This document shows positions 1 through 7,037 of a stretch of DNA of 64,000 nt, one piece after another (within the stretch, counting starts at the first letter, position 1; each line of letters starts with the position of its first letter). The translations under genes and the position numbers were made by a program. Under the pieces are notes generated by a model. That model saw only the letters and a list, made by a program, of their open reading frames with translations. It ran no database searches and was not told the origin of the DNA. This DNA comes from Girardia tigrina. Lineage: Eukaryota. The DNA lies in NCBI GenBank assembly GCA_001938485.1, contig MQRK01250648.1, forward strand, positions 38,002 through 102,001, given 5' to 3'.

Positions 1-2330
1 TATGTTATGTGCTGTCTTTATATTATTTTTAAATTTCTGACGGTGAATGTTTTCTCTTGATTGTTTATTTTTACTGTGACATTACTGTTGTTGGTTTTTA
101 TGATTTGGTATGGTCCTTCATATTTGTCGTCAAAGTTTCTAGTATTTTGTATTTGGACGAAAGCTCTGTTGTTTATGTATCTGTCTGTAGGCGTAATTTC
201 GTTTCTCTGTAATTTTTTTTAAACATATCAAATTTATACTTTGTTTCCGTTAGTTTTTCGAATGGTGTTTTGAGTTCTGTGTTGTAGGATTTCATTTTTA
301 ACACCATGCAAGTTTCTAGGAGCTTTTCTAGCCAGTTACTATTATTGCATTTAGTTCTCAGTGTTTGTTTTTATGTATCTGTAGACGATTTCCACTTTAC
401 CGTTTGCTTGTGGATTGCTGTGGAGTTCTTGGAATTGTTTCGATTGAAATTGTTTCCCTTGATCGCTGATCACTCTTTTGGGTGGTCCATAACGTGCTAT
501 CCAGTTGCTCTCGAATTTGTTGCATATGGTATTTGCGGTGATGTCCTTGAGTTTAATTATCTAAAATCAATTGGTTCCTCTGTCTATGGCTGTTAGCAGG
601 AATCTATAATTTTTGTTTGGTGGTAATGGACCAAGTGTAGATGTTCGAGTTTACCTAATTCCACATAACAGGATGTGATTTTTGTTGAATTGTTCTTGAT
701 ACAATTTGAGCAGTTTTGGATGTAACATTTGATCTGCCTTCTTAGGTTTTTCCAGTATACTTGTTGTTTGAATAGGTGGTATGTTGCTTTTTAATCATAA
801 TGGGTTAATTCATGGATGTTTTTAATGTACGTTGTTCTTAATTCAGCGGATATTAATAGTCTATTGAGTCCCGAAATTGATTGATCGTACCAGATGTTGT
901 TGATTCCTTTTAGTTTGAGTGACTGTTCTTTATACTCTTTTAATGTTTAATCTTGTTTATTTTCCAAGTCTTTGATATTCATGAAGTTGAAGAAGTTGAT
1001 GGCATTGACTGTGTTTCTCGACAGAAAATCTGCGACGATATTATTCTTCCCTGGGATGTAGTTAATGTTACAACTGAACTGTGAAATGTAGCACGTTTGC
1101 TTGAGTTGCCGTGGGCTTGGATTCATTAAGTTTAATGCATGTACGAGTTATGTACGGCTATGGTCTGTGTTTATTGTGAAAGATCTGTGTTCTAGATATT
1201 CTTGGAAGTGTTTGATGGCTCTATATACTCCTAAGAGTTCCCTATTGAATGTAGAATATCTTATTTCTGTGTTATTGATTTTGGCGAGAAGAATGCCACA
1301 TGTATTTCCTTGCCGTTTAGTGTTTGTGATAAGGTTGCGCCGATTGCTATGTTCGATGCATCTATGGTTAGAATTAGTGTTTTGAGTTATGTTGGATCAT
1401 GTGTAGATTGGTTAACATATTTAACTTTTCTTTTATATGATTGAATGTTTTGAAGGTTTCGCCGGTCCATTGGATCTTTTGTAGTTTGCTTTTGTTTTAG
1501 ACCATGTCTGTAAGTGGTGCTAAGATGCTCGAGCAGTGTGGAATGAATCTGTGGTGGAAATTGACCATTCTGCAGAATCTTATTTCTTGAACGTTGTGTG
1601 GTTGTTGGATTAGTTGAATCGTGTCCATCTTCTCTGATTGGATGGATTAGTCCTTTTTCTATTGTATATCCGAGGAAATGGATTTGGTTTTTGTTAAATT
1701 CACATTTGCCTAAATTTAGTGATAGTCCGTTTGTTTTGAGGATCTGCAAGACTATTGCTATATGTTGTTGGTGATCTTTTCTGTTTTTGCTACCGATTAC
1801 TATGTCATCCAGGTACACCACTGTGTAATCTAGCTTGTGAAATAAGTTGTCGATGAACCTTTGGAATGTGGATGCAGCGTTTTTCAGTCCAAAGAGCATT
1901 TTTAAATACTCAGAGTCCGAAAGGGATTATTATTGTGGTTTTTGAGATATCTTCCTCCGGCATTGAAATCTGATGGTAAGCTTTCGTCAGGTCAAACTTT
2001 GTAAAGTATGATGCTTCGCTTAATCTGGTTGTAACATCTTTGATTAAAGGTGCTTGGTACTTTAGTTGTAATGACGTTAAAGCGTCGGTAATCACCGCAA
2101 CACCTCCATGAATTATCTTTTTTCTTTTTCATCAGTAAAGTGGAAGACCAATTGGATGATGATGGTCTAATAACTCCTGTGTCTGTTAATTCTTGGAATA
2201 TTGCTTTAGCCTCTTTTAGTTAATAATCGGGTAATAATCTGACTTTCGTGTGTACTGGAATTCCATTTGTTATTATTTGATGCGTAGTCGAGCTAATAGT
2301 TACGTGCTCTTTGAAAATATGAGTATATGA
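1..2330 (-). mobile_element. Decayed Ty3/gypsy pol (RT, RNase H, integrase), frameshifted
   Basis: Minus strand gives FTKFDLTKAYHQI, FGLKNAASTFQRFID and VVYLDDIVI (RT), TIDASN and YIPGKNNIVADFLSR (RNase H), YWKNL..CSNC (integrase zinc finger), LGPLP and FDDKYEGPYQI (GPY/F tail). Gypsy domain order; many stops and frameshifts. Confidence 0.93.
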
Positions 2331-4385: not shown

Positions 4386-6155
4386 CAGGTCAACAGCGGC
4401 AATTCACGGAAAAGATAAAATGTCTGCAACGGCTGCTAGAAAGCTGAATCTTCGAAATGTTTTTCGTATTACCAAACGCCGACCAAAAATACTATGGAAC
4501 GCTAATATTTTGGAATTGCTTTATTCAATCCGGAGAGAAAATTTTGTGATGGTTCTGAGATAGTAGGAGCTATAAGAGATTTAACTTCTGAAGAATTTTA
4601 TTGGGAGCTCCTAACTGATGTTTCGAAGCACCTGAATCAGAAGTAGTGAGAAAAACTAGTACAAAACCAGTTCCCGTTGGCACGTACACTTATCTATAAT
4701 GACCGACCAGGAATGGAAAAATAAAAATAATAGTACAAAAAATACAATTAAAACAATTTTTGATTGAAGCAATTGATAGAAACAATGTTTGATTTTTTTA
4801 AATAAAACACGATTAAAATATTTGTTTATAATTTACTTATTTGCACTGATATTATAATAGGTATTTGATTCAGTGCCGAACAAGAGAAACAATATATAAA
4901 ACATAATTTATGTACATTCATTAAAGAGACTACCCAGTGATAACAGTAAATTCCACTCAATATATTAAACAACTATTAAAAGAAATTTTAAAAAATGATA
5001 ATTGAAATAACTAAATAATTTGAAAGTCGATGAATTGTCTTTTCAAATGTCTGTCTTTGTTCGATATTTTGGGTGTGTGTATTTGGAGAGAGAAATGTGG
5101 GTTTGTGATTTGTTTGTATGTGTGTGAATTCATGTATATGTGATTGAATGAATGGGATAGAAATATATATAAAATGAAAAATAATTAGTTGTTTTTATGT
5201 TGAAATGTTGTTGTAAGTGACAAATTGTAACTAATAAAACTTGTTAAAATTTGAATTTTAGTCAGTTTAAAAAATGTGTGTAAATCGATCGAATTTGTGA
5301 ATTCAAGTGAAAAAAATTATAAAAAAGAGTTCCTCGAGAAATATTTTTTAAAAAAATATACATAAATTAAATCGTTCAATTGGTAAAAAAAGTTTTCCAA
5401 ATTGTCATTGTCAAATTGAATTATAATAATAAAAAATTTTGAATTAACAAAATCAGTTCTCGTTTTTCCTTAATTTAATGATTGGAAAAATTTGAAATAA
5501 AGTACAATGGATAAATCAATATAAAAATATGTCCATTTTTTGCTGGTCAAAACATTCGAAAAGGGCGTATCCCCAATCTAATATGTCGGGACCGTGTCCG
5601 CACTAAATCAATTTATGACTAGAGCCACGTTTCAATAATATCAAAACTTGCCAAAACTACCAATGGATATCATTAAATTGACCCAAGGGTACACAGAAAT
5701 GATGAGATGAGCCATAAGCCACGGAATCCAGAAAGACGTGCTGATCCAAACCGGTAAGAATTTGAGCAATATCAAAGGTTTGAGTTTATTTGTTTTGAAT
5801 GATGAATGTGAATGTTGGGTTTATAAATCATATGTACTGCAATATCTGAGAATGTGTCTGAGATAAAAGAACAACTTTGTAAAACAGAAAAAAGCGGTAA
5901 TCAATTATGATCACTAAAAATCAAGAAAGCTTTTAAAAAGGTTAAAGCTATAAAGGTTAACTAGCTATAGATGGGAATGGCGTTTTTCTTATGTTCCCTT
6001 GAGTTAAAATTGGTTTACAAGTATGCTTCTTATAAGGATTGTCATTATTAAGTATTCTTATGTTACTTTTTGAAATTTTTTTATATTTCGTTTATATATA
6101 TATATATATATATATACAATGTATGGTAAAATCTATATAATAGGGATAAAAACAA

Positions 6156-6196
6156 GACGACGCGTTTCGAGATAATAAAAATCCCATCATCAGGTC
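6156..6196 (-). ncRNA. Minimal type I hammerhead ribozyme (PLE/retrozyme type)
   Basis: Minus strand: GAC-CUGAUGA-U-GGGAU-UUUUAUU-AUCUC-GAAA-CGCG-UC-GUC. Complete catalytic core, stem II GGGAU/AUCUC, palindromic CGCG stem III region, stem I GAC/GUC. Confidence 0.85.
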
Positions 6197-6843
6197 ACAA
6201 AATGTACCAAGGAGGTACACTATATGGAAACATACAGAAAATAAATACAATTTATCCAATAAATTATTGGATGAAAATAACTTTATTTCTCTTTTCCTTA
6301 AAATTAAGAGAGATGCACTAAATGCAATCAATCTCATTCTCGCAAACCAACCATTGGCAGCTATCAANNNNNNNNNNNNNNNNNNNNNNNNNNNNNNNNN
6401 NNNNNNNNNNNNNNNNNNNNNNNNNNNNNNNNNNNNNNNNNNNNNNNNNNNNNNNNNNNNNNNNNNNNNNNNNNNNNNNNNNNNNNNNNNNNNNNNNNNN
6501 NNNNNNNNNNNNNNNNNNNNNNNNNNNNNNNNNNNNNNNNNNNNNNNNNNNNNNNNNNNNNNNNNNNNNNNNNNNNNNNNNNNNNNNNNNNNNNNNNNNN
6601 NNNNNNNNNNNNNNNNNNNNNNNNNNNNNNNNNNNNNNNNNNNNNNNNNNNNNNNNNNNNNNNNNNNNNNNNNNNNNNNNNNNNNNNNNNNNNNNNNNNN
6701 NNNNNNNNNNNNNNNNNNNNNNNNNNNNNNNNNNNNNNNNNNNNNNNNNNNNNNNNNNNNNNNNNNNNNNNNNNNNNNNNNNNNNNNNNNNNNNNNNNNN
6801 NNNNNNNNNNNNNNNNNNNNNNNNNNNNNNNNNNNNNNNNNNN

Positions 6844-6884
6844 GACCTGATGATGGGATTTTTATTATCTCGAAACGCGTCGTC
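6844..6884 (+). ncRNA. Minimal type I hammerhead ribozyme, identical inverted copy
   Basis: gacctgatgatgggatttttattatctcgaaacgcgtcgtc; predicted cleavage after the GUC ending at 6881. It is the reverse complement of 6156-6196. Confidence 0.85.
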
Positions 6885-7037
6885 TTGTTTTTATCCCTAA
6901 TATATATATATATATATATTTTCTTATCATATATATATATATATGATAGATGGAAATTTTGTTTTTAAATATTATATAATATGATATATAAAACTCTGTG
7001 TAATACATTTTTATTACTATATATGATTACTTGAGAT

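Follow-up and report, generated by a model that had tools for sequence, protein, structure and literature searches.

A 64,000-nucleotide stretch of Girardia tigrina DNA (the whole stretch that was analysed, here called the window) carries two hammerhead motifs on opposite strands, one beside each of two (TA)n tracts. An earlier note on this DNA regarded them as the ends of one short, ribozyme-bounded element. This raises the question of what the mobile unit at this locus is and how its two ribozymes came to face outward. We compared the locus with its relatives in the Girardia tigrina assembly (1.43 Gb, 255,254 contigs).

The inverted arms and their ribozymes

Sequence comparison showed that 6141-6196 matches the reverse complement of 6844-6899 at every base. 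The perfect inverted repeat described earlier is therefore real, but its length is set by a stretch of 476 N (6368-6843). The right arm starts where this stretch ends, so that 56 bp is a lower bound and not the repeat length of the element, and the left arm extends to 6367. The left arm (6117-6367, minus strand, 251 bp) corresponds to positions 393-643 of a 652-bp unit described below, shows 98.4% identity to a monomer of that unit (L003), and gave 44 scored genomic matches out of 1,346 candidates. The right arm (6844-6899, plus strand) corresponds to unit positions 564-619. The N hide the inner ends of both arms and presumably cover their inner parts and the inversion junction. As for the earlier claim that each arm ends in a TA microsatellite, the right arm has a short, tail-less 3' end and runs directly into the (TA)n tract at 6900-6919 (a second tract lies at 6929-6944), but the left arm has a long 3' end and meets its tract (6093-6116, microsatellite scan) only after a 24-nt tail (6117-6140, minus strand, unit 620-643). 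The tail is present in the left arm only and lies between the two preferred 3' ends of the unit. The tracts are the putative target site. The 476 N separate the two arms, and the genome search found neither an empty allele of the insertion nor a paralog or flank colinearity bridging the gap. By analogy with the arrangement seen in other family members, the two arms probably belong to a single insertion whose head-to-head junction lies in the gap.

The full minimal hammerhead core claimed for each arm was found in both (CUGAUGA, U, stem II, GAAA and CGCGUC, with a 3-bp stem I). In the right motif (6844-6884, plus strand), 6844-6846 and 6882-6884 form stem I, the core at 6847-6853 is followed by an extra U at 6854, 6855-6859 and 6867-6871 form stem II, GAAA occupies 6872-6875, the palindrome occupies 6875-6880, and cleavage is predicted 3' of C6881. 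The left motif (6156-6196, minus strand) has its predicted cleavage 3' of C6159, and directly 5' of it lies a hairpin (6197-6230, minus strand; fold of 6117-6230, z -3.5) that shows a two-sided change from C-G to U-A among subfamilies in variants read by eye. The core pattern matched three times in the window against 0.53 expected, and 2 of 100 shuffles reached three. The conserved core (CUGANGA, GAAA and UH), the extra base at 9-10.1 and the G10.1-C11.1 pair are all present. In an alignment of 13 related motifs, 96% of the cells were paired and two-sided changes occurred in 8 of 11 pairs, compared with 19-59% paired in slid controls; none of 500 shuffles equalled the alignment, which is not a probability because the rows were hand-picked and related. 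An Rfam search of the window region, of L032 and of L010 returned nothing with a useful score, be it a hammerhead, rRNA, snRNA or any other family, and the 56-mer takes a shape other than a hammerhead in its minimum-energy fold (z -1.2). As a sequence motif, the hammerhead is thus supported by core conservation and covariation, not by folding energy. It is of the minimal type, with a 3-bp stem I, and not a canonical hammerhead with loop 1-loop 2 contacts.

A third minimal hammerhead, belonging to another family, lies at 38099-38136 (minus strand) with an intact palindrome and a partly decayed stem II. Elsewhere in the window, reading by eye, we take 1387-1926 (minus) to be a gypsy-like RT fragment, 32457-32960 (minus) a tubulin-like fragment, 39448-40212 (minus) an FCP1-like phosphatase fragment, 42347-42970 (plus) a Helitron-like fragment and 63270-63737 (minus) a Tc1-like transposase fragment.

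The need for dimerisation through the palindromic stem III, which had been proposed earlier, was supported by the models: a monomer cannot close stem III without a forbidden 2-nt loop, and the palindromic duplex in trans has a predicted energy of -7.5 kcal/mol. Cutting would require a dimer, formed in tandem or sense RNA. Since the two window ribozymes lie on opposite strands, they are unable to dimerise together. The RNA of a gapless inverted pair at another locus (L010) is predicted to fold into one hairpin of -569 kcal/mol, and in a read-through transcript of an inverted pair the hammerhead is predicted to pair with the antisense arm and to be buried in double-stranded RNA, which would probably make the inverted copy in the window a dead end. 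These predictions speak against the suggestion that transcripts of either strand process themselves. The strict test for an intact core was passed by 41 of 60 copies and failed by 19. Only 5 of 129 points of 5' truncation fell within unit positions 598-606, versus 40 within 520-597. The lack of a pile-up at the predicted cleavage site suggests that the templates were mostly uncleaved or re-ligated.

The 652-bp unit and its relation to Penelope-like elements

A search for the 41-nt ribozyme found 1,216 exact copies in the genome and none with the reversed control. The family comprises at least 1,216 copies of the 652-bp unit, with one minimal type I hammerhead each, near the 3' end. A full monomer stands between two TA tracts at L003; it measures 643 bp, to which tandems add a 9-nt spacer, and direct neighbours are spaced 648-654 bp where neither N nor a deletion intervenes. 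Searches with exact patterns of unequal stringency found 643 short ends (unit 619, then TA), 345 long ends (unit 643, then TA) and 83 tandem junctions. Natural direct dimers with a complete hammerhead in each unit occur at L034, L037, L046, L057 and L164, and the window locus is not among them. No RT or EN coding and no significant Pfam match were found in the unit, and a candidate GIY-YIG remnant was rejected for want of Pfam or tblastx support. The monomer fold is far more stable than those of its shuffles (z -7.7, reached by 0 of 20). At their 3' side, 26 of 28 distinct non-self loci end in (TA)n, the other two being a tandem junction and another sequence, as read by eye.

These results bear out the earlier description of a young, non-autonomous element that is too small to encode RT and support its targeting of (TA)n. 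The functional unit, on the other hand, is not bounded by two ribozymes but is the 652-bp monomer with its single hammerhead, and the mobile form is the monomer or the direct tandem. The reading of the pair as a doubly truncated stub of an autonomous PLE is contradicted by the monomer at L003. The unit, or a LINE described below, may already stand in Repbase.

Older subfamilies of about 69% identity retain the ribozyme. Relatives whose loop II is shorter, with identities as low as about 69%, were seen at L286, L288, L300, L292, L295, L299 and L304, and in L286 and L300 the downstream ribozyme copy has decayed. A different insert of about 297 bp occupies unit positions 91-110 at two loci (L298:1844-2140 and L165:1215-1496; 89% alike). 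At L301:1777-2094, an AT-rich sequence of about 318 bp splits one arm, and unit 333-393 is repeated on either side of it. Words of the unit are also present in sequencing runs labelled as four organisms and as leaf-litter and biofilm metagenomes (runs X1-X18), of which X1, X3, X4 and X8 were compared with the unit through their contigs. Contigs from a leaf-litter RNA library (X8) cover 29 of 29 unit bins; they were not counted as expression, since contigs cannot reveal transcription.

The unit holds an open reading frame of 173 codons whose ATG lies in the ribozyme and which crosses the tandem junction. It is intact in L037 (285-803), L034 (1356-1874) and L046 (678-1196). The longest stop-free frame measured 165-233 codons in seven monomers compared with means of 77-85 in shuffles, and the length was reached by 1 of 800 shuffles at 174 codons and by none of 1,000 at 173. 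No homolog of the ORF was found among 214 longer candidates, no significant Pfam match was obtained, and the atlas was blank; a search against 1.84 billion representatives returned one match, an 89%-identical copy. There was no synonymous excess (17 of 86 recurrent variants versus 25% expected), and the frame is broken in the old subfamily. An autonomous PLE at L117 likewise opens its ORF through the ribozyme, and comparison of the unit's ORF with the N-terminus of this PLE gave no match (best E 0.17). The likeliest reading is that the ORF is a relic of the parent's coding start.

The genome contains at least five autonomous GIY-YIG PLE families (L064-L127), each with its own minimal hammerhead behind EN. 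These hammerheads are of the same build as that of the unit, which bears out its assignment to the PLE-type minimal hammerheads; their stems differ, and five stem III palindromes occur among them. Among 65 inspected GIY-YIG loci (150 scored, 2,832 candidates) in this fragmented assembly, no autonomous PLE carried the tail of the unit, and 20 core-variant matches likewise yielded no autonomous partner. A 48-bp match of 79% in L064, which sits in AT-rich flank, was rejected as a sign of the partner.

Inverted pairs and how they may arise

Tabulating orientation, spacing and flanks of the motif across the genome, as the earlier note had proposed, showed that outward pairs are common in the family and that the ends lie in (TA)n. 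Among the 28 distinct non-self loci, the 5' side could be read at 19, of which 11 had an inverted arm, and not at the other 9. All fetched loci, the window included, gave 19 outward ribozyme pairs, 16 of them without N between the ribozymes, and 41 gapless inversion junctions were seen among the loci examined for junctions; these counts come from targeted searches, and the loci are not an unbiased sample. The pair at L010 is gapless, spans 767 bp (784 bp in the window) and has TA at either end, and L018 combines a long and a short end as in the window. Strand changes were found at 6 of 15 joints among those listed in contigs of run X1, which is perhaps not independent of the assembly. The inner breakpoints differ from locus to locus, and most inverted arms lack the ribozyme.

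An inverted arm with a one-sided tail is the published signature of PLE insertion: PLE insertions with an inverted pLTR, a tail on one side and a (TA)n bias are described, with a warning of assembly problems, in PMC3846280 and PMC8557442. By this analogy, PLE enzymes are likely to have inserted the pair. We regard it as quite probable that the two arms in the window are the 3' ends, with their hammerheads, of two copies of a 652-bp retrozyme-like unit, likely from one head-to-head insertion made in trans by a PLE RT/GIY-YIG protein. Such a protein would nick both strands of (TA)n, which is self-complementary, so that both strands present the same primer. Each 3'-OH would then prime the copying of element RNA, either uncleaved or re-ligated, by the reverse transcriptase, the cDNA starting at one of two sites, 619 or just past 643, and two 5'-truncated cDNAs would join by their inner ends to give an outward-facing pair with a tail on one arm. 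At short ends an A follows, which is a mismatch to the RNA at 620, and a nick between T and A would account for short and long ends alike, provided that the first T of the long end is templated. According to PMC11167929, the PLE PAc nicks and extends both strands, two adjacent start sites define its tail, its substrate is uncleaved RNA, and its ORF begins at stem II.

The inverted arm may instead arise by fold-back self-priming, or when synthesis switches to the new cDNA or to an antisense template. Self-priming has been proposed for PLE inverted junctions in PMC3846280, and overlaps of 1-7 nt were found at the junctions of many pairs. Near-identical arms, at L301 (219/219, with a rare core variant common to both arms), L157 (224/225) and L010 (328/331), share rare variants as a folded-back copy would, but they fit one RNA primed twice equally well. 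In contrast, the inverted arms of L009, L013 and L019 span parts of the unit that are missing from the sense arm, and those of L004 are not nested either. The two arms of a pair often end at different start sites (L298 and L047 each include one short arm), and arms diverge by about 6-9% in 6 of the 16 compared pairs, like unrelated copies (background median 6.1%). Two-strand priming is therefore favoured, and an origin of the inverted arm by fold-back or template switch appears unlikely.

There is a smaller chance, which we consider slight, that scaffolding joined two unrelated copies at contig ends across the gap. The right arm starts precisely at the edge of the N, and many copies lie at contig ends in an assembly of 255,254 contigs. 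Against such a join, inverted arms form the majority where the 5' side is readable (11/19), the span and ends in the window match those of L010 and L018, and the left flank is single-copy.

That the pair is a purpose-built element with two ribozymes, whose transcripts of either strand are self-processed, is very improbable. Both cores are intact and one sense ribozyme lies near the 3' end of each strand, but the variable inner breakpoints and the general absence of the ribozyme from inverted arms are at odds with this, as are the hairpin predicted to bury the ribozyme and the impossibility of stem III in a monomer. Moreover, no inverted family of fixed length occurred among the loci examined. 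Scarcely credible, finally, are a doubly truncated stub of an autonomous PLE, although such families make the same inverted pairs here (L090, L094, L104, L117, L118, L122), since the left arm matches the RT-less monomer and not an EN coding region, and mobilisation of the unit by the LINE instead of a PLE, although the 3' end of the LINE often adjoins the unit, since the LINE lies antisense within the unit, which resumes behind it, and the ends of the unit bear the PLE tail signature.

A LINE within the unit and comparison with known systems

In many tandem copies the unit breaks off at position 106 and gives way to an RLE retrotransposon in antisense orientation, whose 3' end lies at the break. 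This LINE has a reverse transcriptase (RVT_1, E 1.8e-32), a CCHC knuckle and a C-terminus that matches R2 proteins (E 2.3e-5); its homologs are P0001 (45%) and P0002, which contains RT and Ulp1. An Ulp1-like protease was found in a sister family of about 77% identity (L332, E 1.7e-5) and in the homolog P0002. The 3' end of the LINE has 508 exact genomic copies. Seventy of the first matches listed, a few repeats and near-duplicates being passed over, gave 65 distinct downstream flanks, of which 33 agreed with the target in at least 16 of 22 bases and 39 in at least 14, the remainder being off-target; random window positions gave none and 0.07%, respectively. The on-target share is thus about half to 60%, with some flanks being short and possibly 3' transductions.

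Truncated copies of 36 bp (L260), 99 bp (L192), 123 bp (L257), 249 bp (L203) and about 345 bp (L163) are followed by the unit resuming at 109-114, and further truncated insertions lie in the unit at L272 and L277. The differing 5' truncations, with the unit resuming behind, indicate that the insertions are independent. A 3-kb copy at L317 has the unit resuming at 132, and at L220 and L240 the unit adjoins what appear to be full-length 5' ends; of three long copies, L312 and L320 lie off the target. A subfamily at off-target loci (L218, L223, L225, L226, L243, L215) has a 5' end with a duplicated start and about 35 nt of target. The sister family had no unit beside its 7 readable 3' ends, which represent 6 distinct flanks. 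That the target is a hidden tRNA was rejected because ARAGORN found no tRNA in L032, L003 or L286. Taken together, we lean towards a chain of three tiers, in which an unseen autonomous PLE would drive a 652-nt hammerhead element that primes on both (TA)n strands and keeps a long frame running from its ribozyme, and in which the LINE, unlike its 77% sister, would have specialised recently on one site of this element as a self-renewing landing pad.

Tx1L and Tx2L target other transposons. The LINE resembles the NeSL clade (NeSL-1, R5/LIN and Utopia), as presented in PMC4640811, in its RT, CCHC knuckle, RLE-type C-terminus and site preference with 5' truncation, and its 77% sister family shares the Ulp1 protease of that clade. 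The same text lists rRNA, tRNA, U2 and microsatellites as targets of NeSL-related families and transposons as targets of some non-LTR clades. In contrast to NeSL elements as described there, the target of the LINE is a hammerhead-bearing non-autonomous element and not rRNA, tRNA, U2, spliced leader or a microsatellite, and its specificity is partial. In the literature searched, judged by listings of papers, no RLE element with a retrozyme or a PLE derivative as its target was found.

The window pair is mostly known PLE biology, and the interest lies in the targeting by the LINE and in the use of the family for tests of the PLE mechanism. Targeting by the LINE would extend the RLE targets to a non-autonomous element that bears a ribozyme, and with a targeting LINE and a non-targeting sister in one genome, the gain of target specificity is directly testable. 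The formation of inverted arms and tails of PLEs is named as an open question in PMC8557442, and the family, with over a thousand young copies and two sharp 3' ends, allows a statistical test of it.

The unit resembles EN+ PLEs (Pen2a_Av, PMC3846280; PMC8557442, Fig. 2; PAc, PMC11167929) in its inverted 5'-truncated arm, partial tandems, tail at one end, AT-rich or (TA)n target, hammerhead upstream of the tail and ATG within the ribozyme. It differs in lacking RT and EN, in its stable length of 652 bp with subfamilies down to 69% identity, in its tail of 24 nt (30-40 bp in the PLE tails described) and in having both start sites just 5' of short UA runs. Metazoan PLEs contain minimal hammerheads that are defined in PMC4209133, where dual motifs lie 100-700 bp apart on opposite strands and minimal motifs cleave poorly and as a dimer only. 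The motif of the unit has their extra base at 9/10.1, G10.1-C11.1 pair, palindromic 15.2-16.2 and short stem I, whereas its stem II has 5 bp and it is carried by a defined non-autonomous family, not by a PLE stub.

Animal retrozymes and their origin from PLEs are treated in PMC7229834 and bioRxiv 10.64898/2026.07.22.740005. Like the non-LTR retrozymes of animals, the unit is RT-less, has one type I hammerhead per unit, forms direct tandems and is predicted to give a highly structured RNA, and dependence on PLEs has been proposed for them. Its 652 bp fall within the range of 51-972 bp in the bioRxiv study, and two consecutive units with complete hammerheads, the minimum used there, occur at loci other than the window. 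The unit departs from the animal retrozymes in its minimal hammerhead, where PMC7229834 has canonical ones, and in exceeding 170-400 nt; it is also mostly dispersed, has PLE-type ends, was seen in tandem only as dimers or partial tandems and is known here from DNA. The non-autonomous Chlamys PLEs described in PMC8557442 include MRC1, which, like the unit, is non-autonomous, forms pLTRs, inserts head to tail and favours microsatellites, but these elements mostly lack hammerheads and their 3' end matches an autonomous family. By comparison with published PLEs and retrozymes, the arrangement at the window locus is thus known, and the family member that shows it is new.
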